Origin: Escherichia virus KFS-EC
Sequence record: MH560358
Length of the DNA stretch: 64,000 nt
Reading direction: 5' to 3' (one strand)
The position numbers and the translations under genes are program-made. Under the pieces are notes generated by a model. The model was not told where the DNA came from, searched no databases, and worked only from the letters and a program-made list of their open reading frames with translations. Shown in pieces: positions 24,835-39,332 of this stretch (position 1 is its first letter; each line of letters starts with the position of its first letter).

Positions 24835-25655
24835 TTAGTCACCTCACCGAAAATTGTAAATTGTCTACGATTCTCATCGCCGAAAGATTCTACTACGTCG
24901 TTTACCTTGACGCAAGTCCCGCGCGGTAAAATTACTTCACATTCGCAAGGGTTCCATGCAATTGACCCAACAACAAAACCTTTATGATCTTTTACGTCAA
25001 TTACCCATGATACATTACAAGAATGTTGCATCTTTCCGGTCATTGATTCATATCGATTCTCACAATAAAGGCTAGTGCTGTTTGATAGCCATCCTCCAAA
25101 GATGATTGGTGTCATGCTGGTTGACACAAAGTTTTTAAAGGTAAATTCCTTATCTTCAATAATACGCTCTATTGTCTGAATGTCAAGATGTTGACCGCGA
25201 TAAAGAGTACCGTTTAACTTTTCGGTTTTATCCATGACACAATCCATCAAATCGACAATCTCTGATATCTCATCGGTCATGTCTTCTTCCCCTAAGAGAG
25301 CACCATTTACCCATTCGTATTGCTCAGACACATAATCACAGATTGCATTATATTCTGCTGGTGTTATGTTGTTATGTTTGTAATGTTTGAATACATTATC
25401 TCCAAAGTCTTCGGAGTGTACTTCATACATCACATTAATGATTTTCTTGACAAATCCATAATCTTGTGTCTCACGCTCAAGGAAGCGGATAACCTTCACA
25501 TAATCATCAAAGTTAATCTGATCGCTGATCATCTCAGTGATCATGTAACCATTAATCCCCTCAATGTCATATGTTTCGATGTAATTATCCATACGTTCCA
25601 TCATTGATTCGCGTGATTCTTCTGAAAGACGAAAATCCTGTAATTTCTTGAACAT
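24831..25655 (-). CDS. ADP-ribosyltransferase, Alt/Mod-like paralogue (274 aa)
   Basis: C-terminal half carries the R-S-E triad context (LYRG...FVSTS...CECEVILPRG) shared with the Alt catalytic domain. Confidence 0.65.
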   Translation of the reverse strand: MFKKLQDFRLSEESRESMMERMDNYIETYDIEGINGYMITEMISDQINFDDYVKVIRFLERETQDYGFVKKIINVMYEVHSEDFGDNVFKHYKHNNITPAEYNAICDYVSEQYEWVNGALLGEEDMTDEISEIVDLMDCVMDKTEKLNGTLYRGQHLDIQTIERIIEDKEFTFKNFVSTSMTPIIFGGWLSNSTSLYCENRYESMTGKMQHSCNVSWVIDVKDHKGFVVGSIAWNPCECEVILPRGTCVKVNDVVESFGDENRRQFTIFGEVTK

Positions 25656-25673
25656 TTTAAGCCTCCCATATAA

Positions 25674-25710
25674 CAGAAAACGGGGCTAGTATAAAACTAG
25701 TCCCCGTTTT
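25674..25710 (-). terminator. Imperfect hairpin between alt and the ADP-ribosyltransferase paralogue
   Basis: CGGGGCTAG...CTAGTCCCCG stem flanked by T/A tracts on both sides. Confidence 0.4.
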
Positions 25711-25733
25711 AGTCAACCATTATTTCTTAAAAA

Positions 25734-27785
25734 TTACATTTTAAATTTATCTGGCATTGCGTCTACAGATACCAGATCAGCGATAAGCTGACGTAGAGTT
25801 GCCTTATCTGCTTTCTTACGTTCGGTTTTAGCTTCGCTAATGAAGCTGGAGAAAGACAGGTCAGAAGCAGGTTTAACAACACCTTCACGGATGAATGCAT
25901 CACCGTCCGCGATCATCTCGCCAGATTCTTGTAATGCTGCCAGTTCATTTTTGTTCATAATATGTGCCTCAATGTAATAAGTTTCTTGTGAATCCGTCGA
26001 TGCCGTAGCACGAGTTACCGTATCAAAGGATAACACAACACCGCGAGGAAGTAAAATCTCGCATTCTTTGTAAGCAAATGCTTTGTTACCTACTGGCAAG
26101 ACAGGGAGGTTTTCCGCGCCAGCAATGGAGAAAGCAACATTAGCGCCACCTTCACCACGAGAGCCAGCCATAGAATCAACACCAGCAACGGCACTAGCCA
26201 CGTTTGCATTCCAGCCGCCAAAAATGTTAGGTGCAAGGGAAGTGCTCACATAGTTTTTAAAGTAAAACGCTTTTTGCTTACGTGCAGTTTCCCACATTTG
26301 CGACCGGAAGTCCATACCACGATACAGAATAGTACCCGGATCAAGTTTAACGCCATAGTTGGAGAAGGCATTATCCAGTGCATCGCACATCTTGACCAAT
26401 TCTTCTGGATCTGAGATGCCTTCAAACTCTTCCAGCTTACGGTCGGTTAGGAAGTTGTTCATATTGATGTATGCTGCATCGGCATATTCGCTCAACACAA
26501 AACCTTCCGCGCCTGGCAGATCAAGATCAATATCTGCCATCATTTCACCCATGTTGCTAGCAATTGCTTCAAACATACCGGAAGCAACATTACGTAGGGC
26601 ATCGGTTTTAATCTGGGTGATGTGACTACGCAGCATTTCAGCTTTTACATCTGCTGGCATAGACTGGTCTACTCGAACCATTGCTAGGGCGGTGATCTTG
26701 TTTTCGAATACTTCCTCGCTCATGATTTCTTTTAAGCGTTTGATTGATGCTGCGATAACTTCCGCAGACAACGGATCATATTGATCCTGAACTTTTACCA
26801 GTTCGCTTACTGCGTATTTTGCATCGGCTTCGCTTTCAAAAATAGTACGCATGAAACCATAGCGAGTGATAATATCACTTGTCCAGTCATTCAGAGAACG
26901 GGCGGTTGAACGTTCTAAGGCTTGACGATCAATCAGAGTATTAAACTGTTTCTTAGGTTCGGCTTCGGTGATATCTTCTTCCGGTTTAAGATTAATTTTT
27001 TCTGGATGATTCACATAGTCGCTGTTATAGGTCGCTTGAGTTTTCAGCATTTCTTCTTTAGTCAAACGAGATTTAGCCGCTACGCGTTGTTCCGCTTCCG
27101 CGTTTCGTTCTTCTTCTGACACAAGACTAGCCGCATACGCCTCATCTTTAGTCAGTGATTCACCAGTAGCCTTAGATACCCAGCGATCACCTAAATCACT
27201 TTCTACTTTAGTGAACAAGGATTCATCAAGTTTAATCCCTTTAATCTTATCAATCGCCATACCGCGACGCTTGACAACAACTAAAGCGATCTTTTTGCTG
27301 GTCATTACTTCCTGCTGGAATACTTCAAACTTCGGTGTACGACGCACCAAACGCTCTATAACGCGCTTAACCAGTTCGGTCTTACCTTTCATGCGGGATA
27401 CGTTAAAACGGAACATAACAGCGTCTAATTGCGCTTTACGGGCTGTTTCCATAACCACATCAAAAGCACTTGCCATGACTGCAATCGGGTTATCGCCTAG
27501 ACCATTTTTAAGCTGTACAATACGACCGCTTTTGTTCATTTCGCACAGTACAACATGTGCGGTCTTGTCACCCATACGAATGATTTTAGGTGTTTTGTTG
27601 GTGAAGTTACAAAGACGGACAATCACATCTTTATCGCGTGTCTGTACTGCAAAAAGCTGTTTAGGATTCTGCTTAGGCTTTAAGCACTGTACAGGAGCAA
27701 TACTGCCAAAGTTTTCTTCCTCTTCCGTCAACAGCCATTTCTCGAAAGATTCAATCATTAGATCGTCGATTTCTAAGTTAAACAT
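25734..27785 (-). CDS. alt: ADP-ribosyltransferase Alt
   Basis: 683 aa (T4 Alt is 682); C-terminal domain with ILYRG...YVSTS...ECEILLPRG. Confidence 0.9.
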   Translation of the reverse strand: MFNLEIDDLMIESFEKWLLTEEEENFGSIAPVQCLKPKQNPKQLFAVQTRDKDVIVRLCNFTNKTPKIIRMGDKTAHVVLCEMNKSGRIVQLKNGLGDNPIAVMASAFDVVMETARKAQLDAVMFRFNVSRMKGKTELVKRVIERLVRRTPKFEVFQQEVMTSKKIALVVVKRRGMAIDKIKGIKLDESLFTKVESDLGDRWVSKATGESLTKDEAYAASLVSEEERNAEAEQRVAAKSRLTKEEMLKTQATYNSDYVNHPEKINLKPEEDITEAEPKKQFNTLIDRQALERSTARSLNDWTSDIITRYGFMRTIFESEADAKYAVSELVKVQDQYDPLSAEVIAASIKRLKEIMSEEVFENKITALAMVRVDQSMPADVKAEMLRSHITQIKTDALRNVASGMFEAIASNMGEMMADIDLDLPGAEGFVLSEYADAAYINMNNFLTDRKLEEFEGISDPEELVKMCDALDNAFSNYGVKLDPGTILYRGMDFRSQMWETARKQKAFYFKNYVSTSLAPNIFGGWNANVASAVAGVDSMAGSRGEGGANVAFSIAGAENLPVLPVGNKAFAYKECEILLPRGVVLSFDTVTRATASTDSQETYYIEAHIMNKNELAALQESGEMIADGDAFIREGVVKPASDLSFSSFISEAKTERKKADKATLRQLIADLVSVDAMPDKFKM

Positions 27786-27853: not shown

Positions 27854-28066
27854 TTATAATGCACCATCAAGCAATTGCTCTAAGGTGTATCCTGAATAGT
27901 CTTTTTCAATCAGGATATATTTTCCTACTCGTTTAATACAACCACGCATTTCAACGTATTCTGCGTAGTTGATGGTACGAGTTGTTCCATCTTCCAGTAA
28001 TGCAGTACCGATTTCGTTAATGCGGTCATAAGTTACGTCGGTAATGATGATTTCGATGTTAGCCAT
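27854..28066 (-). CDS. Hypothetical protein (70 aa)
   Basis: Start moved to internal ATG (MANIEIIITD) with TAAGGAGT ribosome binding site; the track start lies inside the promoter. Confidence 0.5.
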   Translation of the reverse strand: MANIEIIITDVTYDRINEIGTALLEDGTTRTINYAEYVEMRGCIKRVGKYILIEKDYSGYTLEQLLDGAL

Positions 28067-28102
28067 TTGATACTCCTTAGTAGTTCGTTTCGGTATGTGT
28101 GC

Positions 28103-28131
28103 ATTATAGGGGATCACCGATCCCCTGTCAA
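28103..28131 (-). promoter_or_regulatory. PeSL-type early promoter (TTGACA, GGGGATCggtGATCCCC, TATAAT)
   Basis: Minus strand: -35 TTGACA, 17-nt spacer that is a perfect GC palindrome, -10 TATAAT, then conserved leader ending in a ribosome binding site. Confidence 0.6.
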
Positions 28132-28138
28132 CAACTTT

Positions 28139-28657
28139 TTAGTTATTTTTTAATTGTTCATCTTGCAATAATGCAATCACATGCTGGCGATGTTCTTCCG
28201 ATTGAGGTACACCGAAAAAGTTTGTTTTGTAGAAATACTCTAATCGGTCTTCTCGTGTGCTCTCTTCCATCATGATCGCGGGTAGTCCGAGATTTCGGAA
28301 ACGTCGCTTTTCTGCTGGCGTAAAATCACTGTAATACAACATAGAATCATCATTACAAGCAATGCTAAACTCATCTTTCATAAAGGAGAATATTGCGTTT
28401 AAACGCTGTTTACCGTCCACGATTTCGATCTCATAGCGAGAGCCATCATCAATCTTAGCCATTGCGATAGCACCAACCGGAAAATCATTAATCAGGTTTT
28501 CGATAAACATACGTTTGTTTTCGGTGTCCCATACCAAAGGACGCTGATAATCTGGGTTCATGTTGATATAGCCATCTTCTAACCATGCTTCGTAAACAGA
28601 GATGACAAAGTTTTTAGTATTGGTATAGTAACGGCGTTTAGGCGTTAAACGGTTCAT
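28139..28657 (-). CDS. ParB-like / DUF262-like protein (172 aa)
   Basis: DYQRPLVW and DGKQRL motifs typical of the DUF262 ParB/Srx-fold domain; ATG placed 1 nt after the upstream stop. Confidence 0.55.
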   Translation of the reverse strand: MNRLTPKRRYYTNTKNFVISVYEAWLEDGYINMNPDYQRPLVWDTENKRMFIENLINDFPVGAIAMAKIDDGSRYEIEIVDGKQRLNAIFSFMKDEFSIACNDDSMLYYSDFTPAEKRRFRNLGLPAIMMEESTREDRLEYFYKTNFFGVPQSEEHRQHVIALLQDEQLKNN

Positions 28658-28658
28658 G

Positions 28659-28991
28659 TTATAGTCTCCTGAATGGATCATCACGTAAATCAATATCTTT
28701 TAAGAACTCATCCCATGAATGGCGGATATTGTTCTTAATTCTCCAGATAAGCGCAGGGATTGAACGCTCTCCCATCTGGAAGTATGGATCATATGATCCG
28801 TATGACCAATATGCTACTACAATTCCACAATCAGCGCAATAGTATTCTATTTCACTTGCTGGCGACCAAAGTCCATCAATATGATCGGTGATCTTGCTTT
28901 CGATGTTATGGCTATGACAATCAGGGCAACGGATGCAATGACCTTGTTTATCGTAATTTGACGTTAGAGAATACTTAAACAATCTCATCAT
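28659..28991 (-). CDS. Zinc-ribbon protein (110 aa)
   Basis: CIRCPDCHSH ... YYCADCG, two CxxC pairs; ATGA overlap with the upstream methyltransferase-like gene. Confidence 0.5.
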   Translation of the reverse strand: MMRLFKYSLTSNYDKQGHCIRCPDCHSHNIESKITDHIDGLWSPASEIEYYCADCGIVVAYWSYGSYDPYFQMGERSIPALIWRIKNNIRHSWDEFLKDIDLRDDPFRRL

Positions 28992-29704
28992 GGATCCTTA
29001 TTTGCTTCAAATACTGCCTTTGCGAATCCTCGCGGGGTAAGTGACCTGATAGTCTTTGTTTTCGTTCCTTTCCCGCCTAGCTTAGAATGCTGTTTACTGT
29101 ACCCTTTATTAATCTGCACCGGTTTCTTTTCTGGCATTATAAAGCCTTGTCCGGTCCATAAGCAAGTCTTTTTTGGGTACATATCACGGGCGGCAATATA
29201 CTCAGGAAACGTAGGATGCTTATCATCTTCCGGCAAATAACCGCCATATTCCCACGGATGGAACATGTAATCAGGCTTACGCCACATGCTAGAGATAACG
29301 CTTACAGGATTCTCTATCATGTAGGGAACTCCTAGCCATTCACCCAAATAAGCGGTTATTTTAGCTGCCCGTACATCATGAACTTGAATCAATGGTCCTT
29401 GTTCTAGTTTCTTTCGTTCAAAGTGCGCAGCGCCACTAACAGCTAAATTGGTGCACGGTGGGAATGCAAAGATAATATCCGGTTTCCCCCATTCAAGGTC
29501 CATTGCTCTTTCCAGCCAGTTCAAATCAACCCAGGTGTTTACATAGGTAATGTTTTGATGTTCAAATCGGGTATTATATTTTTTGTATGTACCGTGGTCG
29601 CCATCGTCAGCATTAAAGCAGATCACCTTATGACCCGCTTTAGCCCATTCTAACCCCATTATCCCCGATCCGTCAAAGTTGCAGAATATTAATTTTTGTT
29701 TCAT
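28988..29704 (-). CDS. Cytosine-C5 methyltransferase-fold protein, minimal (238 aa)
   Basis: Motif I FCNFDGSGIMG, motif IV DIIFAFPPCTNLAVSG (PC catalytic dipeptide), motif VI YMIENPVSV (ENV-like), C-terminal TPRGFAKAV (motif IX/X-like); no room for a conventional target-recognition domain. Confidence 0.6.
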   Translation of the reverse strand: MKQKLIFCNFDGSGIMGLEWAKAGHKVICFNADDGDHGTYKKYNTRFEHQNITYVNTWVDLNWLERAMDLEWGKPDIIFAFPPCTNLAVSGAAHFERKKLEQGPLIQVHDVRAAKITAYLGEWLGVPYMIENPVSVISSMWRKPDYMFHPWEYGGYLPEDDKHPTFPEYIAARDMYPKKTCLWTGQGFIMPEKKPVQINKGYSKQHSKLGGKGTKTKTIRSLTPRGFAKAVFEANKDP

Positions 29705-29946
29705 ATACTCCCCTTTAATCCAACACAGATTTTAGAAGGTTCTTTGCCGTGCCACATTAAGTAAAGTCCGTTAATGCGGCCTTGTTTTGTATATGATTCT
29801 TTTCTGATCTTCTTATAGTGTCGTGTTTCCTCAGCCGATTGTTTAGAATACCAATCATAAAGGAAGATGAACAAAGGCCACCCATTAGCGGCCTTAATGC
29901 AGTTATTCAAAAATTCCTTATTGCGTTTAATTAATTTTCTTTTCAC
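29701..29946 (-). CDS. Hypothetical protein (81 aa)
   Basis: Start (possibly GTG) overlaps the upstream stop; basic N-terminus and hydrophobic WPLFIFLYDWY segment. Confidence 0.4.
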   Translation of the reverse strand: MKRKLIKRNKEFLNNCIKAANGWPLFIFLYDWYSKQSAEETRHYKKIRKESYTKQGRINGLYLMWHGKEPSKICVGLKGSI

Positions 29947-30194
29947 GCTGCCCCCATTGGTTTGATAGTAACAGAATCTAAAAGACCTTTGTTAGCCAGT
30001 TCGCGGCAAGTTTTCAGATCCGCAACTTCCCAGCCAGCCGCAATCAGGTTATCGATTAGGCTGTTAGCAACTTCTTCGCTCATGAAAGAGCACTGTTTGC
30101 CGATGGTGTAGCGTACACGCTGTAATTTCAGTTTACGGAAGCCTTTAACGTTCAGGTCTTTAGCGATTTTCTTTGCGGTTTCGATGTTAGCCAT
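29943..30194 (-). CDS. Hypothetical protein (83 aa), first gene of coupled operon
   Basis: ATG with ribosome binding site directly downstream of a PeSL promoter. Confidence 0.5.
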   Translation of the reverse strand: MANIETAKKIAKDLNVKGFRKLKLQRVRYTIGKQCSFMSEEVANSLIDNLIAAGWEVADLKTCRELANKGLLDSVTIKPMGAA

Positions 30195-30234
30195 TGTTTG
30201 ATTCTCCTAAGTGGTATCTCGTCTTGATGGTTGT

Positions 30235-30264
30235 ATTGTAGGGGGAGTTATCCTCCCCTGTCAA
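30235..30264 (-). promoter_or_regulatory. PeSL-type early promoter (TTGACA, GGGGAGGataaCTCCCCC, TACAAT)
   Basis: -35/-10 hexamers bracketing an 18-nt GC palindrome; leader almost identical to that at 31139-31173. Confidence 0.55.
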
Positions 30265-30278
30265 CACTTTTTATAAAA

Positions 30279-30446
30279 TTATTTGTTAATTTCTGGTGCG
30301 TTGCTAGGATAGTAACCTTCTTTAACTCCGAGATATTTCGCAACCATCCCTACAATCTTCTGTGCTACTACAATGTCAAATTTCAGATAATCTTCGCCGT
30401 GGGTTTCAATGATATATGCTTCACATGCTGCTTTAGTCTCGAACAT
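30279..30446 (-). CDS. Small protein (55 aa), copy 1 of duplicated gene
   Basis: ATG ORF MFETKAACEAYIIETHGEDYLKFDIVVAQKIVGMVAKYLGVKEGYYPSNAPEINK, about 90 percent identical to the 33560..33727 product; under 60 aa so absent from the track. Confidence 0.5.
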   Translation of the reverse strand: MFETKAACEAYIIETHGEDYLKFDIVVAQKIVGMVAKYLGVKEGYYPSNAPEINK

Positions 30447-30479
30447 TTTGATTCTCCTATTTCGTTTCGTTATGTGTGT

Positions 30480-30508
30480 ATTATAGGGGATCTCCCGATC
30501 CCCGTCAA
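30480..30508 (-). promoter_or_regulatory. PeSL-type early promoter (TTGACG, GGGGATCgggagATCCCC, TATAAT)
   Basis: Palindromic spacer between -35 and -10 on the minus strand. Confidence 0.55.
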
Positions 30509-30522
30509 CAACTTTTTTAAAA

Positions 30523-30804
30523 TTATTCGTGATTAGTTTCGATGTTGTGCATTTTGCACCAGTTCAGCCAATCACCCAGATCCTGATAGTTAATGCTTTT
30601 ATCTGCTGCCATCGTTTTTGTCTTGATACCCATATGTGCGTTATGAGTAAGCATTTTTACAGTGAACTCAATTTTATCACCTTTAGCTTTAACATCAACC
30701 AGTTTGGTCCACTGGCTACCAGCGCCGCGAATGTTCATACCAACGATGTTTCCGATGTATGCTTCTTTGTTTTTCAGGATTTCGGTTGCTTTGATGAATT
30801 TCAT
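30523..30804 (-). CDS. Hypothetical protein (93 aa)
   Basis: ATG ORF with upstream promoter and conserved leader. Confidence 0.5.
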   Translation of the reverse strand: MKFIKATEILKNKEAYIGNIVGMNIRGAGSQWTKLVDVKAKGDKIEFTVKMLTHNAHMGIKTKTMAADKSINYQDLGDWLNWCKMHNIETNHE

Positions 30805-30837
30805 TTTTGATTCTCCAGTTCGTTTCGGTATGTGTGT

Positions 30838-30866
30838 ATTATGCTATGTTCTTACTTTGGTGTCAA
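30838..30866 (-). promoter_or_regulatory. Sigma70-like early promoter (TTGACA / CATAAT), no palindrome
   Basis: Same -35 and conserved leader (ACACACATACCGAAACGAAC) as the PeSL promoters but a non-palindromic spacer. Confidence 0.5.
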
Positions 30867-30874
30867 CAACTTTT

Positions 30875-31144
30875 TTAGATATTTTCAGAAATAAATTTTA
30901 AAACTTGACGTAAATGTTTCTCATCTTTGATAGTCGCCGGAAGTTCTTCTTTTACTTCCTGTGCAAGATAGATATTTCCGTTCCAAGTGAAAGATCCGTC
31001 TTCGTTTACGCGATAGCTGAACATCCACTCGCAATCATTTTCGATTTCATATACACACAGAAGGGTGTAATCGTTAAAGTTATTGATTTCAAGGTCGAAG
31101 CCGTGACGTTTTGCAAAGTTGGTAGTGGTTTTAGTCAGCGCCAT
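30875..31144 (-). CDS. Hypothetical protein (89 aa)
   Basis: ATG ORF; 5' leader nearly identical to that of the 29943..30194 gene. Confidence 0.5.
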   Translation of the reverse strand: MALTKTTTNFAKRHGFDLEINNFNDYTLLCVYEIENDCEWMFSYRVNEDGSFTWNGNIYLAQEVKEELPATIKDEKHLRQVLKFISENI

Positions 31145-31184
31145 TGTTTGATTCTCCTAAGTGGTATCTCGTTTCGATGTGTGT

Positions 31185-31213
31185 ATTATGCTATAGGCGT
31201 GATTTGGTGTCAA
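31185..31213 (-). promoter_or_regulatory. Sigma70-like early promoter (TTGACA / CATAAT)
   Basis: -35 and -10 with 17-nt spacer on the minus strand. Confidence 0.5.
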
Positions 31214-31235
31214 TGCCTTTTTTAAAATTTTATGC

Positions 31236-31262
31236 AATAAAAAGCCGACGCTAAGGTCGGCT
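31236..31262 (-). terminator. Rho-independent terminator downstream of the 31270..31578 gene
   Basis: AGCCGAC-gctaag-GTCGGCT hairpin with U-tract on the minus strand. Confidence 0.6.
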
Positions 31263-31269
31263 AATAAAA

Positions 31270-31578
31270 TCATTTAGACAAATAATCATTCTGTGCAATC
31301 CGGTCGGCGTATGCTGGTGTTATGTCAATCGCCAACACTTTAACGCGTGCTTTCTTGCGACCTGGGTTTTCTCGTAACCAGTGCTCATGACCGTGAACAT
31401 TTTTATACTGAGATGCTTCTTCGAAGGTACGGATCGGACCTGGGTAATCAGCGTAAAGGATCTCTAGGTCATCGGTGATGTAAAAATATACATCATAATT
31501 ACTGTTCTCTAGTTTAAGCAGAGAGTTGCGAAATTGTGGTAAATTCTCGCGGGTAAATTCAACTACAAGATTTTTCAT
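31270..31578 (-). CDS. HxHW-VLAVDV family small protein (102 aa), paralogue 1
   Basis: Signature YFYITDD ... HGHEHWL ... VLAIDI shared with five neighbouring ORFs. Confidence 0.55.
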   Translation of the reverse strand: MKNLVVEFTRENLPQFRNSLLKLENSNYDVYFYITDDLEILYADYPGPIRTFEEASQYKNVHGHEHWLRENPGRKKARVKVLAIDITPAYADRIAQNDYLSK

Positions 31579-31628
31579 AGTGATATCCTCATTCAGATAG
31601 ATTAAAAGGGGGCTTAACGCCCCGTATA

Positions 31629-31916
31629 TTAAAACAGTCCTTCCTGTACACCGTAGTAGAGTTCGTCGCTGATAATTTCATTAATGCGACGGTGTGCATA
31701 TTCCTGATTTGCGAAGTTGTCAGCAAGTTCTACTTTAGTTTCGCCGTCATGAGTCCATTTAGTGATAACTTTACCATCTGCAAATTTGAAGTTGAACTCT
31801 TTAGCTACTGCATCGCGTACCAGACGTGCGAACTTGTTGTTACGGATTGCATTATCGGTTTCGTGTGCAGCGTGAGCGAATTTGTTAACTTTCAGAGTGA
31901 TAGTAATGTATGCCAT
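31629..31916 (-). CDS. Hypothetical protein (95 aa), related to the 34945..35256 product
   Basis: Shares ...VR.A.AKEFN.K... segment with the 34945..35256 ORF. Confidence 0.5.
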   Translation of the reverse strand: MAYITITLKVNKFAHAAHETDNAIRNNKFARLVRDAVAKEFNFKFADGKVITKWTHDGETKVELADNFANQEYAHRRINEIISDELYYGVQEGLF

Positions 31917-31962
31917 AATTTGATTCTCCTAGTTAGAAAGTGTATCTCGTTTCGATGGGGAT

Positions 31963-31991
31963 ATTATGCTATATCCCCGATCCGGTGTCAA
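31963..31991 (-). promoter_or_regulatory. PeSL-type early promoter with palindrome overlapping the -10
   Basis: TTGACA, 17-nt spacer, CATAAT; GGGGATAT...ATATCCCC inverted repeat spans the -10 region. Confidence 0.5.
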
Positions 31992-31997
31992 CACTTT

Positions 31998-32276
31998 TTA
32001 TAAAATAATTTTTTGATATTTTTCTATGATGTTTGTGTAGGTCACGTCAACCGCTAGCACCGTTGCTTCGAATCCACCGTTTAACCAATGGCTATGATCA
32101 TGATCGTGAAAGAAACCTAGACCAGTACGAAGACCTTCTTTATATTCGGCGCGTACATTTAGATCATCATCGATAAACAGATAAAACCATGAATTTTTAC
32201 TAGGATTGATGATACAACCTTTCAGATTAGGGAGAATATCACGACTAAGAATAAACTTATCACCTACTTTGAACAT
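31998..32276 (-). CDS. HxHW-VLAVDV family small protein (92 aa), paralogue 2
   Basis: Start moved to ATG (MFKVGDKF) with GAGGA ribosome binding site; motif FHDHDHSHWL ... VLAVDV. Confidence 0.55.
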   Translation of the reverse strand: MFKVGDKFILSRDILPNLKGCIINPSKNSWFYLFIDDDLNVRAEYKEGLRTGLGFFHDHDHSHWLNGGFEATVLAVDVTYTNIIEKYQKIIL

Positions 32277-32280
32277 AATA

Positions 32281-32601
32281 TTAGTCCTCACTTATAAGGT
32301 CAAACCAATTGTTTTTCGCATAATGCTTAATGCGTGCTTGATCTGCTTCCGCTGGTGATAGATTCCATGCAACCACTACAACTTCTGACGCATCGTCATC
32401 CGTTTCTGATACCCAATGATTGTGATTCATACAGTTATTTGCTATCGAGTGAGCAAATGATTTCATCACTGGAGACGTATAATCATAGTAACGGATTTTC
32501 AGATTTTCATCAACATACAAGTAGATCGTATAAGGTTTATATTCAGTAACCAGTAACAGACAGTTACGCAATTCTGGGAAAATCTTTTTAGTTAATTTCA
32601 T
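32281..32601 (-). CDS. HxHW family small protein (106 aa), paralogue 3
   Basis: Start moved to ATG (MKLTKKIF) one nt after the upstream stop; motif NHNHWV ... VVVVAWN. Confidence 0.5.
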   Translation of the reverse strand: MKLTKKIFPELRNCLLLVTEYKPYTIYLYVDENLKIRYYDYTSPVMKSFAHSIANNCMNHNHWVSETDDDASEVVVVAWNLSPAEADQARIKHYAKNNWFDLISED

Positions 32602-32602
32602 T

Positions 32603-32821
32603 TTATAATCCTCGGTCTCGGCTATAGTACACGGTACGCCATACAATTTCATGTTTCGTGTCGCTCCAGCACACGATCTCATTTACTCTTAAATCTTTGT
32701 TATCAACAAAAGATGAACATTGTGACGCTTCTTTCATCATTTTATCTGCTGTTTTCTCATCAAATACAGCACAGATTTCTTTATACACTCGATAATCTTT
32801 GAATTGACTCTGAATACCCAT
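32603..32821 (-). CDS. Hypothetical protein (about 72 aa), member of a two-gene paralogue pair
   Basis: SQFKDYRVYKEI...KMMKEASQCSSF parallels SKFKEYKAYQQI...KMMEDASKCPSF in the next ORF; start uncertain (41-nt overlap with upstream gene). Confidence 0.45.
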   Translation of the reverse strand: MGIQSQFKDYRVYKEICAVFDEKTADKMMKEASQCSSFVDNKDLRVNEIVCWSDTKHEIVWRTVYYSRDRGL

Positions 32822-33044
32822 AATTAACACCATTCCAACCAATTGTTTTTGAGAAAACGTTTATCCACTGTTGAGTGTAGCATGTTTCTTTCCATGATAC
32901 AATACGAGTGGAATAATGGTTTTTGTTTCCAGAAAAGGACGGGCATTTTGATGCATCTTCCATCATCTTTTCGGCGAACTCTGGTGCGTATACTCGCAGG
33001 ATCTGTTGATATGCTTTGTATTCTTTAAATTTGCTCATAATCAT
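32781..33044 (-). CDS. Hypothetical protein (87 aa), member of a two-gene paralogue pair
   Basis: ATG ORF; paralogue of 32603..32821. Confidence 0.45.
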   Translation of the reverse strand: MIMSKFKEYKAYQQILRVYAPEFAEKMMEDASKCPSFSGNKNHYSTRIVSWKETCYTQQWINVFSKTIGWNGVNYGYSESIQRLSSV

Positions 33045-33303
33045 TCACTACCTTATCAGCTTCTTTTGTTGTTTTTACATCAACTGCGATAACTCGTAAA
33101 GGTTCGTCATGGTTCCACCAGTGGTCATGAATATCAGCTTGTGATTTATCACCAAAGGAATCACGAATATCATTTTTACATTTATAGCTAATGTGACCTT
33201 CATAGTCAACATAAAGGTAATTATCGAAAATCGGCGTTTTTAAGATCATACCGAAAAATCTTTCTTTGTGTGTCTTATCCAGCGTTACAGTAATTCGCAT
33301 CAT
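33025..33303 (-). CDS. HxHW-VLAVDV family small protein (92 aa), paralogue 4
   Basis: Motif YLYVDYEG ... IHDHWW ... VIAVDV. Confidence 0.55.
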   Translation of the reverse strand: MMRITVTLDKTHKERFFGMILKTPIFDNYLYVDYEGHISYKCKNDIRDSFGDKSQADIHDHWWNHDEPLRVIAVDVKTTKEADKVVNDYEQI

Positions 33304-33315
33304 AATATATTCCTC

Positions 33316-33495
33316 TTAGAAAGGGATGGTCATTTCTTGAGCTTGTACATTCTCGTTAGGATTAAACTTCATCCAACCGATATTGTCTACCAGCATATGT
33401 ACATTTTTATCATATCCTACGTGAGTAGTCAACACTAAATGTGCTTTACCTTCAACGATGATTTCCATGTACTTCTGAACTTCGATAGCTTTCAT
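33316..33495 (-). CDS. Small protein (59 aa)
   Basis: ATG ORF MKAIEVQKYMEIIVEGK... with conserved leader and ribosome binding site; under 60 aa. Confidence 0.4.
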   Translation of the reverse strand: MKAIEVQKYMEIIVEGKAHLVLTTHVGYDKNVHMLVDNIGWMKFNPNENVQAQEMTIPF

Positions 33496-33559
33496 TTTGA
33501 TTCTCCGTTTGTTGTCTTGATGGGAGTATCTTACTACTCCCTTTAATCATTGTCAACTA

Positions 33560-33727
33560 TTATTTGTTAATTTCCGGTGCGTTGCTCGGATAGTAACCTT
33601 CTTTAACACCTAGATATTTTGCAACCATTCCGGTGATCTTCTGTGCTACTACGATATCGAATTTCAGGTAGTCTTCACCGTGGTTTGCTACAATGTATGC
33701 TTCGCATTCTGCTTTAGTCTGGAACAT
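33560..33727 (-). CDS. Small protein (55 aa), copy 2 of duplicated gene
   Basis: Start moved to ATG (MFQTKAECEAY); near-identical to the 30279..30446 product; preceded by PeSL promoter. Confidence 0.5.
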   Translation of the reverse strand: MFQTKAECEAYIVANHGEDYLKFDIVVAQKITGMVAKYLGVKEGYYPSNAPEINK

Positions 33728-33761
33728 TTTTGATTCTCCTATATCTCGTTGGTATGTGTGC

Positions 33762-33790
33762 ATTATAGGGGATCGGTGATCCCCTGTCAA
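33762..33790 (-). promoter_or_regulatory. PeSL-type early promoter (TTGACA, GGGGATCaccGATCCCC, TATAAT)
   Basis: Same architecture and almost the same palindrome as the promoter at 28103-28131. Confidence 0.6.
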
Positions 33791-33795
33791 CAACT

Positions 33796-34089
33796 TTATA
33801 ATGCTTTATATGCGTATTTCATAAATTTGTCTGCCACTTCATTGGCATGTTCAGATTCTACGCCTGATTCGAGAACAATAGCTAGGTCGGTTTCGTCATT
33901 CCCGCCGTACCAATGATTTGATGTTCGATTTTTTTCAATTGGAAATTGGTCACTTTTATCTGTGCGACAAAATACATCTAAATGCTCGTCGATGTAAAAG
34001 ATCCAATCTTCATAAAGAATAACGGTATTAGCAAGATTTTTATTGCCTTCAACGAAAGGTTCGGCTACAAACAAATTAGTATGTTCCAT
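33796..34089 (-). CDS. HxHW-related small protein (97 aa), paralogue 5
   Basis: Start moved to ATG (MEHTNLF) with GAGGAAA ribosome binding site; motif IFYIDEH ... SNHWY ... LAIVLE. Confidence 0.45.
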   Translation of the reverse strand: MEHTNLFVAEPFVEGNKNLANTVILYEDWIFYIDEHLDVFCRTDKSDQFPIEKNRTSNHWYGGNDETDLAIVLESGVESEHANEVADKFMKYAYKAL

Positions 34090-34105
34090 AGTATTTTCCT
34101 CAAAA

Positions 34106-34297
34106 TTATACAGCTTCGTAAACTTCCCAATGTCCAACACCAGCACGCTTAACGAAAAGGTTTTCTTTGATGTTATTCATAAACGTCTGGATGGATTTAA
34201 TGCGGTTTGAAGGTTTCCATTCTTCGTTGGCATTGCGTCGATACATCATAACATTACCAGTTCGCTTATATTCAGCAACCATTTTAAGACCACACAT
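34106..34297 (-). CDS. Hypothetical protein (63 aa)
   Basis: ATG with GAGGA ribosome binding site. Confidence 0.45.
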   Translation of the reverse strand: MCGLKMVAEYKRTGNVMMYRRNANEEWKPSNRIKSIQTFMNNIKENLFVKRAGVGHWEVYEAV

Positions 34298-34354
34298 AAT
34301 ATTATCCTCAATTTGTGGGAGAGTATTACCCCTCCCAATGATTGTTATGTTATA

Positions 34355-34675
34355 TCACACAAAATGGCGTGTCAATGCTTCTTTTGCGGTTCCGCTAAGA
34401 CTTTCGATCTCGCCTGGCATAACATCAACCGCCAGAACTTCTACAACATCCTCGGACCCTAACCAGTGAGTATGACCTTTGTAGAACTTGATAACCAGAC
34501 TACCTTCCTCGTCCCATTTAACGCTATCGCTAGCCCACCACACATCACCGTCGATAAAGTTGATGTAAAGCACACTACGCCACATTGAATTAATTACTTT
34601 CAATACTGCGCCTTTCATCTCTTCCACGGTATGGTCTTCCATTTTGAAGACCTCACCTACCTGAACTTTTGCCAT
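34355..34675 (-). CDS. HxHW-VLAVDV family small protein (106 aa), paralogue 6
   Basis: Motif YINFIDGD ... GHTHWL ... VLAVDV. Confidence 0.55.
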   Translation of the reverse strand: MAKVQVGEVFKMEDHTVEEMKGAVLKVINSMWRSVLYINFIDGDVWWASDSVKWDEEGSLVIKFYKGHTHWLGSEDVVEVLAVDVMPGEIESLSGTAKEALTRHFV

Positions 34676-34692
34676 TTAGTCACCTCTCTTTA

Positions 34693-34872
34693 TTACATAA
34701 CACTCACGCCAGCCGTTGAAAGTTGATGTTTCAACTGAGCATTTTCTGCTACCGTCAAATCAATGATTTCTTGTGACGCTGCAATCATATAGCCATTGGT
34801 GATATTGTTTTGCATCAGTTCAATGGTTTCTTCGTTGTAGCGGATTTTAGCGATGATTTCGTTGAAGTTCAT
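34693..34872 (-). CDS. Small protein (59 aa)
   Basis: ATG ORF MNFNEIIAKIRYNEETIELMQ... downstream of PeSL promoter; under 60 aa. Confidence 0.4.
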   Translation of the reverse strand: MNFNEIIAKIRYNEETIELMQNNITNGYMIAASQEIIDLTVAENAQLKHQLSTAGVSVM

Positions 34873-34906
34873 AATTGATTCTCCTAGTTCGTTTCGGTAT
34901 GTGTGT

Positions 34907-34936
34907 AGTATAGGGGAGTTTAACCTCCCCTGTCAA
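34907..34936 (-). promoter_or_regulatory. PeSL-type early promoter (TTGACA, GGGGAGGttaaaCTCCCC, TATACT)
   Basis: Palindromic 18-nt spacer between -35 and -10. Confidence 0.55.
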
Positions 34937-34944
34937 CAACTTTT

Positions 34945-35256
34945 TTAAAGTTTTTCCATGATAACGGTCATAATTACATCTTCTGCGCGAGCGGTCAGAT
35001 TATCAGCGTCAGCATGTGGGCGGTTGGTTGTTACAGAGATAACACCGTTGCGCACTGGTTTGATATTGATATCAAGATGATCCGCGAAACGTTCGCCAGT
35101 TACAGAATGAATTTTGGTGTTAAATTCTTTTGCCAGTGCCTTGCGAACTTCACGAATCAGGATAGCGTTTTTCAGTTGGTTCTCCGCGCTCATGGTCTTC
35201 TGGGTGTTCATGGTTCCGTCGAAGTCAATCATTGGCAGCGTTACGATGTATTTCAT
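34945..35256 (-). CDS. Hypothetical protein (103 aa)
   Basis: ATG ORF downstream of PeSL promoter; related to the 31629..31916 product. Confidence 0.5.
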   Translation of the reverse strand: MKYIVTLPMIDFDGTMNTQKTMSAENQLKNAILIREVRKALAKEFNTKIHSVTGERFADHLDINIKPVRNGVISVTTNRPHADADNLTARAEDVIMTVIMEKL

Positions 35257-35301
35257 TTTTGATTCTCCGTTTAAGAAAGTGTGTTTCGTTTTGATGTGTG
35301 T

Positions 35302-35330
35302 AGTATAGGGGATACGTGATCCCCTGTCAA
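35302..35330 (-). promoter_or_regulatory. PeSL-type early promoter (TTGACA, GGGGATCacgtaTCCCC, TATACT)
   Basis: Palindromic 17-nt spacer. Confidence 0.55.
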
Positions 35331-35343
35331 CAACTTTTTTGAA

Positions 35344-35688
35344 TTATTTTTTCATGAGCTTAATGGCTTCTTCCATAGCCAGCACATTTCGATAGTTAGG
35401 GTATCGTGTTAGATCGTCATACATTCGCTTAAGGGTGGAAACTTCCTCAAACTCTGGGTTTTCTAGATACAGTTGAACAAATTGTTTCTCTACCATCTCG
35501 GCTTTTAGCTTGTCTGCTTGTTCCTGTTCATATGATTTCGTTGGACCCAACACCAACAAAATGATAAAGGTGATCAACGGGCTAATGATCAATGATAGGA
35601 TAACATAACCGATAACGCTACGGTTTAAACGGCTTGCATACATGCCTACCAGGAAAACAAAAAGGATATAGATAAACAGAAAGAACAT
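35344..35688 (-). CDS. Membrane protein (114 aa)
   Basis: Two hydrophobic helices in the N-terminal half followed by a charged tail. Confidence 0.5.
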   Translation of the reverse strand: MFFLFIYILFVFLVGMYASRLNRSVIGYVILSLIISPLITFIILLVLGPTKSYEQEQADKLKAEMVEKQFVQLYLENPEFEEVSTLKRMYDDLTRYPNYRNVLAMEEAIKLMKK

Positions 35689-35695
35689 ATAATGG

Positions 35696-36169
35696 TTACT
35701 CCTTATTTTCGCGCTCGTACTTTTCGAAATAAAATTCTACTGGCTGGTCATGAATTGACAGCAAGCCAAAGCGTTTAGCCGCTCGCAATCCCATATTGCG
35801 CTGAATGTACTTCTGGAAGTTCTCGCGTATACACTTACGCCAGTATTCTAAGCCCATACAGCTTTTATAAAGATTGCATTGCACACACGCCGGATTCATG
35901 TTATCAAGTATATCATGTTCCGGTTTATGCATTCCTACAACCTTATACTTCCACGATCCATCATCATTACGGGCAATTCGTCCATTTTCATCATAGACTA
36001 CCTTTGAGCGTCGCAATACTGGTTTGATGTGGTCTGCGTGCCAGCGATCCCCTAGTTCCTCGCCACAATAGGCACAGCGTCCACCATATTTCATTTTCAG
36101 GATCTGGCGTTGCTCTTTCTTTGACAATTTTTTAGGTTTAGGGGCTTTCGACCCTTCATTATCACACAT
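35696..36169 (-). CDS. HNH endonuclease (157 aa)
   Basis: CAYCGEEL ... HADHIKP ... NMNPACVQCNLYK, classical HNH/His-Me finger with zinc ligands; start overlaps the ligase stop. Confidence 0.7.
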   Translation of the reverse strand: MCDNEGSKAPKPKKLSKKEQRQILKMKYGGRCAYCGEELGDRWHADHIKPVLRRSKVVYDENGRIARNDDGSWKYKVVGMHKPEHDILDNMNPACVQCNLYKSCMGLEYWRKCIRENFQKYIQRNMGLRAAKRFGLLSIHDQPVEFYFEKYERENKE

Positions 36170-37658
36170 CGAATACCTCTTTTACTGTATTTGCAGTGGT
36201 CTTGTCGTAGCGAATACGTTTGATGATCGGGAGAAATAAAGAGAACTCCGGTTCATCTTCTTTACGTGATTTGCTGCGAATGTACCCGTTGCATGTCATC
36301 TCAATGACTTTTCCAATCAGGTTATGACGGTCAGCCCATAACATTTCTCGGTCTAGTTCATTTCGACGATCGAACGGAATTACACGTTCAATACCATCAT
36401 CACCTTTTTCGGTTGTGGTGTCGGTTAATCCCGATCCGGTGTTAGTCATCATTCGTCCGCACGCACTACGGACAGTAAAACCGCCTACCTTATTAGGATC
36501 TTTACTATGCGGATATACATCAACAATTTCAGCGTCGAAGTCAATCACTTCTTTAAATTTAACCTGATCTTTACTGCGACGATCTTCAAATACACCATGT
36601 AAATTTTTAAGGATAATACCTTCTAAGCCCATGTTTACATAGCGATGATATACTTCGCGAGCTTCATCGATATTGTTAACTACAGTATTTTCGATTATCT
36701 GAACACGAGGATCGTTAAGTTCTTCAACAATCTGTTTTAGTTCTTCGAATCGATCTTTATATTGCTTCGTTGCTTTCTCGTTTCCGTAATACACATCACG
36801 GTCGATAACATCCCAGACAGTATAAACAATACATTGGGCTTCTTCTTTTGGAATAGTTCCTTTAAGTGATTTGTTGAGGATACCATTTCCGGTCTGACGG
36901 TCTGCAACAACGGATTCTTTTACTGCTTCCGCTACTGGCGTTAATGGCATTTCCTCTTCTTCAAATATCCATGACAGAGTACCATCATAAACGCTTTCAA
37001 CGAAGTTCTGCGCTGGTGTTTGCGAAAGGGTAGGCATATATACCAATTCGCCATCTAGAACAATTCCACGGCCTCGTAGACGCTCTAAAACCGCAAACAA
37101 ATCATCAAGTCCCTGATAGGTATTACCTGAACGGGTATAGATTGCTAATGTTTCCCCGTCAATATCAGCCATACCACGAGCGCCATCGCTTTTAAGTTGT
37201 GCATACGCCGGATACTTGATATTAGCAATAGTCTTATCAGAACATGACGATGCAAGGTGGCACGGCTGCTGGGGGATCAGTTTCTTCCATACCTTGTTTG
37301 CGGTGGTAGCGGAACAACCGCATTCCAAATCACGATTCAGGACCATCATTGCAACTTTAGCATCATCTTCTGACAAGCAGGTCAGAGTATCGGTAACTAG
37401 CTGTAATGCTGCGTTACCAGTTACTTGACGCGTGGCAAGTTTATTTTTAAAGACCTGTAATGCACCGGATAAAGACAATACAGACGAATAACGCGATGGT
37501 TTATCGTATTTCTTTACGCCAAACGTAACCTGTTTGCAATATGCCAGATAAAAGCATTCTTTCAGCGTTTCATTGCTCGCGGATTCTTTCAGGATCTTTT
37601 CTTTCAGCGATGTTTTGTCTGTTGCTGCAAGCTGGTTAATGATATTAAGAATTGACAT
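36162..37658 (-). CDS. 30: ATP-dependent DNA ligase gp30
   Basis: Motif I KSDGAR and similarity to T4 DNA ligase; start moved to ATG (MSILNI) with GAGGTGA ribosome binding site. Confidence 0.9.
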   Translation of the reverse strand: MSILNIINQLAATDKTSLKEKILKESASNETLKECFYLAYCKQVTFGVKKYDKPSRYSSVLSLSGALQVFKNKLATRQVTGNAALQLVTDTLTCLSEDDAKVAMMVLNRDLECGCSATTANKVWKKLIPQQPCHLASSCSDKTIANIKYPAYAQLKSDGARGMADIDGETLAIYTRSGNTYQGLDDLFAVLERLRGRGIVLDGELVYMPTLSQTPAQNFVESVYDGTLSWIFEEEEMPLTPVAEAVKESVVADRQTGNGILNKSLKGTIPKEEAQCIVYTVWDVIDRDVYYGNEKATKQYKDRFEELKQIVEELNDPRVQIIENTVVNNIDEAREVYHRYVNMGLEGIILKNLHGVFEDRRSKDQVKFKEVIDFDAEIVDVYPHSKDPNKVGGFTVRSACGRMMTNTGSGLTDTTTEKGDDGIERVIPFDRRNELDREMLWADRHNLIGKVIEMTCNGYIRSKSRKEDEPEFSLFLPIIKRIRYDKTTANTVKEVFDV

Positions 37659-38124
37659 TTTCACCTCGTTTTGTTAAACGTTCACGAATATCATTGAGGA
37701 TACTACAAAATTCCGATTCAGTCAATATAGTCTTTAACGGATCAGTTCCACCTATGCTATGACGTAATTTCTTATTTCCGGTAGCGAGTAATGCTTTACA
37801 AAATTCTGGGTTATTCCGTGCCATCGTAACAAATGCCAGATGTACCAGTCTGTAATAATGCTCACTCATTCGATGAATCGGGCGACCCTGAAAATATAAC
37901 ATGTGATTCTCAATCTTTTCAGATCTTCCGGTTCTTTTTGCTTTGCCACCGTGCATCAAAAAGATTTCTCTTTGTCTCTGAGGGTTCTTAAATCTTAGCC
38001 CCTGTAAAAATCCTTCTGTGCTGTTAATATCGCAACCAAATAGACGGAATGGTCTTTTATTGAAATTACTCAATTCACCCGATGGATAAGGTCCACCCGC
38101 ATAGATATCAATTTCAGAAGTCAT
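37645..38124 (-). CDS. NADAR / YbiA-like (DUF1768) protein
   Basis: IYAGGPYPSGELSNF ... STEGFLQGLRF ... KALLATGNKKL parallels E. coli YbiA (INFYS...GDFSNF ... SEHYFQAQKF ... RALLLATAPAKL). Confidence 0.6.
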   Translation of the reverse strand: MTSEIDIYAGGPYPSGELSNFNKRPFRLFGCDINSTEGFLQGLRFKNPQRQREIFLMHGGKAKRTGRSEKIENHMLYFQGRPIHRMSEHYYRLVHLAFVTMARNNPEFCKALLATGNKKLRHSIGGTDPLKTILTESEFCSILNDIRERLTKRGENVNS

Positions 38125-38278
38125 TGAAACTAATCTCGCTAATCAGAGAGAACGGATCATAATCGTCATTAGGAATATCGATAGTAATCGAATGAGGATT
38201 TACCCATACACCAAACTGGTCTTCATCGGTGAATACTTCGGTATGGATTTCGTGGATGTTTACATTCATAGTTTTCAT
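38114..38278 (-). CDS. Small protein (54 aa)
   Basis: ATG with AGGAA ribosome binding site; stop overlaps the start of the NADAR-like gene; under 60 aa. Confidence 0.35.
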   Translation of the reverse strand: MKTMNVNIHEIHTEVFTDEDQFGVWVNPHSITIDIPNDDYDPFSLISEISFNDF

Positions 38279-38320
38279 AATAAAATTCCTTAATAATCAA
38301 TAACTTACAAAATCATATAG

Positions 38321-38349
38321 CCAAAATATAGGCGGGATTATTTCCCGCC
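38321..38349 (-). terminator. Hairpin terminator downstream of gene 31
   Basis: GGCGGGAttattTCCCGCC with an A/T-rich tract on the minus strand. Confidence 0.45.
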
Positions 38350-38360
38350 GTTTAAAATCA

Positions 38361-38684
38361 TTAACCGTAAACTACAACAATATTCTGTTTGTGTGTTACA
38401 GTCCATTTCAGATCGATCTCTTCTTCCTTCTTAACGCCATTAATAACGTCTGGATGAGGAACTTTATTAAGTTTCCCATGAGGAAGCAATACAGTCTTGC
38501 CCAGCAATTCTTTATCAACGTTATCACCGATATCAATAATCTTACCGACTAAAGGAATCTCTCCCATAGTTCGTTTTTGCTCGATGATAATACCAAAATC
38601 GCTCTTTACTTCGGTCCCTGCGCTTTCCGCTTTAGCTTCAATGATCACATAGTCACCAAGTGCTTTAGGAGTTTTAACGGTCAT
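38361..38684 (-). CDS. 31: Co-chaperonin gp31 (GroES-like)
   Basis: 107 aa; GDYVII and VPHP motifs as in T4 gp31; AAGAGGT ribosome binding site. Confidence 0.75.
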   Translation of the reverse strand: MTVKTPKALGDYVIIEAKAESAGTEVKSDFGIIIEQKRTMGEIPLVGKIIDIGDNVDKELLGKTVLLPHGKLNKVPHPDVINGVKKEEEIDLKWTVTHKQNIVVVYG

Positions 38685-38720
38685 AATTTTCTTACCTCTT
38701 CAATTCATCTCAATAGTAAA

Positions 38721-39332
38721 TTATTTATATTTCGCGACCTTTGGATTTCTCCGCAGACCGGAATGTATTTGCGCTATACAACAATAAGAAACATTAAACA
38801 TATCAGCTATAATTTGCTTCTTAACTTTTCCTTTAAGCCGCATTATTTCTTCGACTTGCGCATTTGTCAGTTTTGCCCGTGAGTGGTTTTCACCGACATT
38901 GTTATTGAGTCCAGTTCTAAATGAATGTCTCATATTTTCTAGTAAGGTTACTATTTCTAGATTCCACACATAATTGCAGGTTTTTACACCATTGATGTGA
39001 TTAACCTCAAGTCCGGTAACGTCTCCTAGAAATGCATTTGCTACAAGTCGATGTATCTTTTCGGCTTTAACTGAGATTTTACCATTGTCTTTTTGTTTTG
39101 ACAATGTTGAATAATAATATCCATATCGGTCTAAAATTGGTTTTATTATTTTACCAGCACGTTTTTGTTTTACGAGCTTAATATTACCGGGAGAAACTTC
39201 TCTATAAAATTCGATACTTCGGTCAATAGATCTCAATCTACCATAATTAGAGATTTCATACCACGGATAACCTACAGCTTGTCTCCATTCTTCCGGCGCT
39301 GGTAATACGATATTATCATCTTTTGTTTCCAT
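38721..39332 (-). CDS. HNH homing endonuclease (NUMOD4-like N-terminus + HNH_3)
   Basis: WYEISNYGRLRS NUMOD4-like segment and HRLVANAF...VNHINGVKTCNYVWNLE HNH_3 segment; free-standing between gene 31 and cd. Confidence 0.65.
   Translation of the reverse strand: METKDDNIVLPAPEEWRQAVGYPWYEISNYGRLRSIDRSIEFYREVSPGNIKLVKQKRAGKIIKPILDRYGYYYSTLSKQKDNGKISVKAEKIHRLVANAFLGDVTGLEVNHINGVKTCNYVWNLEIVTLLENMRHSFRTGLNNNVGENHSRAKLTNAQVEEIMRLKGKVKKQIIADMFNVSYCCIAQIHSGLRRNPKVAKYK

Follow-up and report, generated by a model that had tools for sequence, protein, structure and literature searches.

A stretch of 64,000 nucleotides (nt) of DNA from Escherichia virus KFS-EC (MH560358), referred to below as the window, carries two closely similar genes of 55 amino acids (aa) and two leaders of nearly the same sequence placed before different open reading frames (ORFs). 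The question raised by this locus is whether these repeats were produced by a recent event in this particular genome, as a sequence-only reading had proposed, or whether they belong to an older, maintained system. The region very probably represents the promoter-early stem-loop (PeSL) system of Krischvirus, with an ancient pair of 55-aa paralogs, a leader module shared among mosaic cassettes, and general recombination acting through them. PeSLs were defined in the phages phi1 and RB49 and divided into subclasses by the position of the hairpin (Arbiol et al. 2010, PMC2839356), and they were extended to other T4-like phages by Comeau et al. 2014. The ORF numbers used here were taken from a gene-by-gene comparison with RB49 and phi1.

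Structure and age of the 55-aa gene pair

Both genes were recognized as ORFs and by comparison with RB49. Copy A (30279..30446, minus strand) is the ortholog of RB49 ORF191 and belongs to phrog_8009, and copy B (33560..33727, minus strand) is the ortholog of RB49 ORF205. The protein identity of about 90% given by the sequence-only reading was borne out, with 49 of 55 residues the same (89%, E = 1e-37); the nucleotide sequences agreed at 143 of 168 positions (85%) and differed at the other 25. The homology between A and B began in the AT-rich/-35 part of the upstream cassette and stopped at the stop codon, and the cassettes downstream of the two copies were of different subclasses. A PeSL and its ORF, up to the stop codon, make up the duplicated unit, which is also the moving unit predicted by the published PeSL mini-circle model (PMC2839356). 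Copy B starts at the ATG at 33727, preceded by GGAGAATCAAAA, and the same start is annotated in RB49. A mechanical ORF list ran copy B up to a TTG at 33793, so that the added part (33728-33793) reached just upstream of the -35 hexamer and overlapped it, and at least one database protein, P0004 (77 aa), likewise extended a gene of the copy B type through promoter and leader. The upstream extension of copy B through its own promoter and leader is a gene-calling artefact.

The divergence of the pair was examined in 19 genomes, which held 15 copies at the A locus and 17 at the B locus. Between copies A and B of the window, the synonymous divergence dS was 0.94 and the nonsynonymous divergence dN was 0.055, with a dN/dS of 0.06 (Nei-Gojobori), so the nucleotide alignment and dN/dS by which recency was to be judged spoke against it. 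In the genomes first compared, A orthologs lay 1-4 nt from copy A of the window and B orthologs 1-4 nt from copy B, and A differed from B at 23-26 nt. Over all 19 genomes the diagnostic sites gave unmixed A or B patterns, the only exception being the converted copies of phage PTE-Eco09 described below, and tblastn recovered two copies from about 50 of the 57 Krischvirus records. The synonymous sites had thus diverged and orthologs were closer to each other than the paralogs of one genome, which is not the pattern of a recent segmental duplication. Because the A and B types are each nearly invariant and most records hold both, the duplication, or double acquisition, predates the sampled genus. 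Judged from these alignments, the 55-aa genes are ancient paralogs, both kept under strong purifying selection, and the retention of two diverged copies under such selection suggests that the 55-aa protein matters to the phage. Homogenisation of the 3' third of the ORF by conversion was considered and set aside; the 3' sites were polymorphic four-fold sites in both paralogs over the 19 genomes, a pattern that was suggestive, not decisive.

Neither the two copies nor their neighbours matched any Pfam family, and PHROGs gave phrog_8009 only, a family of unknown function. A search of 5.8 billion proteins returned four clusters, all of them close relatives; P0003 was 83% identical to the 55-aa protein, and the P0004 cluster was over-extended, starting upstream of the true ATG, and had a divergent C-terminus. 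Scans of IMG/VR found two loci only for the protein and one contig only for the leader of ORF190 and ORF194 described below. Homologs of 51 aa with 70-72% identity were present in siphoviruses (Swiduovirus swi2, Skatevirus SeSz-2, and others), which argues that the 55-aa gene has spread horizontally beyond the T4-type phages. These homologs adjoin the terminase genes of unrelated 45-47-kb siphoviruses, the swi2 copy lying at 2501-2656 of its locus; a PeSL-like cassette was looked for at the swi2 homolog and none was found.

Architecture of the PeSL cassettes

The window contained 14 cassettes; all of them lie from 28064 to 47215 on the minus strand, and the plus strand has none. A cassette of this kind, about 80 bp long, precedes most of the genes flagged in this region. 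The shared design consists, in order, of an AT-rich tract of the AAAAAGTTG type, TTGACA, a spacer of 17-18 nt, a TATAAT-like -10 element, ACACACAT(A)CCGAAACGAA, GGAGAATCAAA, and ATG. The stop codon of the upstream gene lies inside the AT-rich tract (for example, TAATTTTAAAAAAGTTG), a GC hairpin lies in or next to the spacer, and the A/C-rich leader is followed by a strong Shine-Dalgarno (SD) sequence. The AT-rich tract was nearly absent in PeSL205/204, where it read TAATAGTTGACA. At the 3' end, GGAGAATCAAA-ATG was found in 12 of the 14 cassettes and GGAGTATCAA in the remaining two. The ORFs downstream of the cassettes had no Pfam family and fell into PHROGs of unknown function, and a search of the whole window against Rfam found no RNA family.

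The PeSL promoter that had been placed before each 55-aa ORF was confirmed at both copies, where a sigma-70 consensus encloses a spacer occupied by a GC hairpin. Upstream of copy A, PeSL193/191 (30447..30522, minus strand), with its AT-rich tract and A/C-rich leader, contains the promoter TTGACG-17-TATAAT (30508..30480), made up of the -35 element at 30508-30503 and the -10 element at 30485-30480, the hairpin GGGGATC-GGGA-GATCCCC (30503-30486), and the SD sequence GGAG (30457-30454). Upstream of copy B, PeSL206/205 (33728..33804, minus strand) contains TTGACA-17-TATAAT (33790..33762), with the -35 element at 33790-33785 and the -10 element at 33767-33762, the hairpin GGGGATC-ACC-GATCCCC (33784-33768), and GGAG at 33739-33736. 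The sigma-70 consensus scores were 11/12 for the copy A cassette and 12/12 for that of copy B, and the stem of both spacer hairpins comprises 7 bp (GGGGATC-loop-GATCCCC). Downstream of copy A lies PeSL191/190 (30195..30278, minus strand; score 11/12, spacer of 18 nt), which carries the shared leader block, a -35 element at 30264-30259, a hairpin GGGGAG..CTCCCC, and the -10 element TACAAT at 30240-30235. Downstream of copy B lies PeSL205/204 (33496..33559, minus strand), of a different subclass, in which the hairpin GGGAGTA..TACTCCC overlaps the -10 element TAAGAT. The cassette upstream of ORF194 (31145..31227, minus strand) scored 11/12, with the -35 element at 31213-31208 and the -10 element CATAAT at 31190-31185; its GC hairpin is weak, and a separate canonical terminator hairpin lies just upstream (31243-31262). 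Hairpin folding was predicted at -12 to -18 kcal/mol, and the PeSLs flanking both copies had predicted stems of 6-8 bp and whole-cassette fold z-scores of -2.2 to -4.2.

The cassettes are mosaic, since each has long exact blocks in common with different partners. Among the 91 pairs formed by the 14 cassettes, the median longest block was 12 nt.

The shared leader of ORF190 and ORF194

The leaders described as nearly identical, at about 30188-30222 and 31139-31173, proved to be exact repeats over 33 nt. One copy (ACGAGATACCACTTAGGAGAATCAAACAATGGC; 30190..30222, minus strand) precedes ORF190 (29943..30194, minus strand; 83 aa, phrog_14908), the other (31140..31172, minus strand) precedes ORF194 (30875..31144, minus strand; 89 aa, phrog_6147), and the function of both PHROGs is unknown. 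The match spans the distal leader, the SD sequence, the spacer, the ATG, and the GC of codon 2. The 30-mer quoted in the sequence-only reading occurred exactly twice in the 64 kb (30192-30221 and 31142-31171), with 0.00 occurrences expected by chance, and the 190/194 block was the second-longest among the 91 cassette pairs. That the leaders precede unrelated ORFs also held, as BLASTP found no similarity between the ORF190 and ORF194 proteins.

The 33-mer was present in 55 Krischvirus records; 42 of these had it twice and none had it three times, and among 50,697 phage records it was found in none outside those 55. The identity of the leader pair is therefore genus-wide and gives no sign of recency. 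In phiS a private AAA variant, catcAAAacgag, was present in both leaders, and in JK32 a private T variant (atacTactt) was likewise present in both; in RB49, phi1, JSE, and phiS the identity of the pair extended to 40-41 nt. In the family of mosaic cassettes the shared leader block counts as one module, and the window shows a standing, maintained state, not a fresh event.

Recombination through the cassettes in RB49, phi1, and other relatives

Recombination between neighbouring PeSLs was reported to give circles and deletions, and the PeSLs were described as strong early promoters and terminators (PMC2839356). Mini-circles formed by recombination of PeSL with PeSL were both proposed and demonstrated, and a sequenced mini-circle, "band H", contained ORFs 191-194 with its crossover between the -10 element and the ATG of PeSLs 190/191 and 194/195 (PMC2839356). 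This crossover falls in exactly the leader pair discussed above, and recombination through the cassettes had therefore already been published for this region. The published circle junctions differ from one another (PMC2839356), and homology of less than 50 bp is sufficient for T4-type phages, as cited in the same paper (PMC2839356). In lacZ fusion, PeSL206/205 of RB49/phi1 gave about 13,000 Miller units (PMC2839356). Promoter activity of PeSL206/205 and PeSL193/192 and terminator activity of PeSL211/210 were demonstrated in vivo in RB49/phi1 (PMC2839356).

Additional events were found in sequences of relatives from GenBank phage records, not in the window. Cognac has a single copy, in which the upstream neighbour of copy B is joined to the ORF of copy A with the loss of about 3.3 kb and 13 ORFs, and the crossover lies between the hairpin loop and the -10/+1 region. 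FL04 has the same deletion through an independent event, with a different chimeric PeSL and the crossover in the 5' stem arm. In JK32 and UPWr_E1, copy A is precisely lost and the 5' part of PeSL193/191 is joined to the leader of PeSL191/190, with the crossover at TACACACAT/CAAG (-10/+1 region). ORF193 is joined to ORF185 in MIZ4 with the crossover within AAAAAGTTGTTGAC (AT-rich/-35 region), the ORF212/210 cassette is joined to ORF205 in phiS within GGAGAATCAAAAATG (SD-ATG region), and ORF210 is joined to the ORF205 cassette in PTE-Eco09 within AAAGTTGTTGACAGGGGA (AT-rich/-35 region). In all, the relatives show at least six independent deletions at the cassettes beside the 55-aa genes, and the six natural junctions that were mapped fall at five or more different positions of the cassette.

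Shorter exchanges were also observed. In PTE-Eco09 (paralogs at 2217-2384 and 5501-5668 of its locus), the A-locus copy carries B alleles at nt 7-24 and the B-locus copy carries A alleles at nt 51-75; by their allele patterns, these patches are gene conversion between the paralogs, reciprocal-looking, and they form the sole clear case inside an ORF. At these two loci the PeSLs of several phages were mosaic: the A locus has a B-type leader in Whisky, Skers, and PTE-Eco09 and a B-type hairpin in JSE, and the B locus of E26 has an A-type loop. The slot at 30447-30522 (ORF193/ORF191) had at least three states: empty in the window and phi1, occupied by the 477-bp ORF192 in RB49 and G2494, and occupied by an unrelated 312-bp ORF in JSE; this slot is an insertion hot spot. 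On this comparison of sequences, recombination through the cassettes in relatives is well supported. Of the proposed direct evidence of recent recombination, cassette recombination itself therefore stood, through the published circles and the junctions in relatives; the recency fell, and so did the view that it could be read directly from the window.

In the window, as in eight other genomes, the hairpin loop of PeSL206/205 (33768-33784) was ACC; in six genomes it was GGT, the exact reverse complement. The loop state (ACC or GGT) and the -10 variant (TATAATG or TATACTA) lie less than 10 nt apart, and all four combinations exist. A GGT loop is also present in PeSL186/185 of the window (28103-28131). 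The loop difference could be a template-switching flip or an exchange with another PeSL.

Evaluation of alternative explanations

In the preferred explanation, the PeSLs would act as dispersed direct repeats that serve as substrates for the general homologous recombination of the phage. Exchange between them would yield deletions, short tracts of gene conversion, and insertions at PeSL slots, and the conversion tracts would keep modules of the cassettes, the 33-nt leader among them, the same within one genome. General homology-driven recombination has the best support, since junctions are found along the entire cassette.

A recent duplication or recombination in this particular genome would account for the 89% protein identity and the exact match of the leaders, but 25 of the 168 nt differ with a dS of about 0.94, nearly all 19 genomes show the same A-versus-B differences, and both the gene pair and the leader pair are found across the genus; this highly implausible alternative is already refuted by that genus-wide conservation. 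The probability of an assembly artefact is practically negligible, since the copies are only 85% identical in nucleotide sequence and have unique flanks, and such an artefact was excluded because dozens of genomes assembled independently (about 50 of the 57 records) have this same diverged pair. A duplication that is not an artefact of assembly was thereby upheld. It is unlikely, though a serious consideration, that the pair are pseudo-paralogs, a second PeSL slot having received a diverged allele of another phage in the course of a co-infection. PeSL slots do accept foreign ORFs, as the three states of the 193/191 slot illustrate, the gene family is horizontally mobile as judged from the unrelated Swiduovirus and Skatevirus homologs, and copies of intermediate divergence were not found. 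Set against this, A and B are mutually closest (89%, versus 83% with P0003 and 70-72% with the homologs in siphoviruses), their upstream PeSLs are of the same hairpin-in-spacer subclass, and such an insertion would use the same machinery and end in the same result as a duplication.

Other alternatives concern the cassettes. The leader identity might be kept only by purifying selection on a 5' untranslated or translation-initiation element, with no exchange between loci, as the block is conserved genus-wide, includes the SD sequence, spacer, and start codon, and has no Rfam family, which suggests a simple translational role. This is improbable in view of the private variants found in both leaders of one genome (phiS, JK32), the switch in the length of identity between 33 nt and 40-41 nt among RB49, phi1, JSE, and phiS, and the sequenced circle with its crossover in the leader block (PMC2839356). 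A dedicated site- or structure-specific recombinase acting in integron-like fashion on the GGGG...CCCC hairpin was raised as a possibility by Arbiol et al. (PMC2839356), and the conservation of the hairpin and the two reverse-complement states of the PeSL206/205 loop would agree with it. We consider it very unlikely: the six natural junctions do not coincide within the cassette, the published circle junctions differ as well, and the annotated RB49/phi1 region contains no integrase-like gene. Neither the dedicated recombinase nor the single crossover point in a hairpin site that characterize integrons was found. A related idea, to which we give a low probability, is that PeSLs are more than passive patches of homology and direct exchange through the hairpin or cruciform, for example by structure-specific nicking or template switching. 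It would fit the reverse-complement loop states, the four loop/-10 combinations, and the private variants co-occurring in leaders 950 bp apart. If it were true, the exchange rate of the cassettes would lie far above that of the flanking ORFs, and they would constitute a built-in shuffling device.

Several points weigh against the explanation by ancient paralogs and general recombination, or narrow it. The cassettes at 30866 and 31213 have no convincing GC hairpin, so not every cassette is a full PeSL, and the promoter and terminator activity of the PeSLs in the window is predicted by analogy with the RB49/phi1 experiments. The crossovers were placed with proxy parents (the window, phi1, and Whisky). 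The 5' boundary of the duplicated unit is blurred because all PeSLs resemble each other, the original duplication event is beyond reconstruction, and an intragenomic duplication and the second acquisition of a diverged allele cannot be separated. The AlphaFold2 model of the 55-aa protein, built from a five-sequence alignment, was of low confidence (predicted local distance difference test score of 67) and consisted of two helices at residues 5-16 and 18-39.

In this model the C-terminal tail EGYYPSNAP, which is highly conserved, was disordered. The product is probably, by a tentative assignment, an immediate-early small helical protein that would serve as a host-directed accessory factor, and it may perhaps bind a host factor through the EGYYPSNAP tail.

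Comparison with known systems

The cassettes of the window agree with the PeSLs of RB49/phi1 in genus, in the hyperplastic region, in ORF numbering, and in cassette architecture, and there is no essential difference from the published system, for which two genomes only were compared (PMC2839356). The finding is a correct recognition of that system: real, ordinary, and already known. The PeSL cassettes explain the gain, loss, and reshuffling of small early accessory genes in T4-type phages. What is added here is modest, namely genomes of later date than the two of 2010, with deletions and conversion tracts and with junctions inside the cassettes that flank both copies. The paralogy of ORF191 and ORF205 is not mentioned in the main text of Arbiol et al. 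2010 (PMC2839356).

Morons of lambdoid and other tailed phages, each a gene with its own promoter and terminator, resemble the PeSL units as autonomous accessory genes inserted between other genes; they are not bordered by conserved repeats, and their movement is attributed to illegitimate recombination, whereas in PeSLs the regulatory cassette itself supplies the homology (PMC2839356). Integron cassettes, with attC hairpins and an integrase, share the circular single-gene intermediates, the hairpin boundaries, and the arrays of small ORFans. Unlike them, PeSLs have no integrase, carry a promoter for each cassette, and cross over along the whole repeat instead of at one site. Concerted evolution and ectopic conversion in bacteria (repetitive extragenic palindromes and insertion sequences, REP/IS, and ribosomal RNA operons) show the same short conversion tracts, shared private variants, and direct-repeat deletions. 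In contrast to those repeats, PeSLs are about 80 bp long and are functional promoters and leaders, and the ORF paralogs mostly escape homogenisation.

Genomic context

The 4.4-kb region matched 57 Krischvirus records, none below 90% identity, and in the 25 genomes listed the identity was 92.9-98.2%, the best being phage kvi (98.2%). By this similarity the window is assigned to Krischvirus, as an RB49/phi1-like T4-type coliphage. All genes of the 4.4-kb region are on the minus strand, and the region is part of the hyperplastic region with small early ORFan genes on that strand. Its topology is of the phi1 type, without ORF192 between ORF193 (30523..30804, minus strand; 93 aa, identified by the RB49/phi1 comparison) and ORF191 and without ORF195/ORF196 between ORF197 and ORF194.

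Six small ORFs of about 92-107 aa on the minus strand (31270-31578, 31998-32276, 32281-32604, 33025-33303, 33796-34089, and 34355-34675) form a diverged paralog family with 18-31% identity, an invariant H-W, and a VLAVDV-like motif near the C-terminus; no Pfam match was found for this family. Because of this family, the region is considered rich in old duplications, of which the 55-aa pair is only the youngest. Two more tandem pairs of tiny ORF paralogs with about 38-40% identity are present on the minus strand, at 32603-32842 and 32781-33044 and at 46634-46801 and 46801-46974.

Just downstream of the cassette array, in the part covered by 24831-27785 and 28988-29704 (minus strand), lie two Alt-like ADP-ribosyltransferase paralogs, which share 37% identity over 109 aa, together with a DNA methyltransferase (RB49 ORF189). 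The methyltransferase block is absent from MIZ4, where it was lost by a deletion between PeSLs. Intrinsic terminators, each a GC stem followed by a T-run, are located after ORF197 and ORF198 (31243-31262 and 31609-31623, minus strand), at places where the neighbouring cassette has no GC hairpin of its own or where the cassette is absent.

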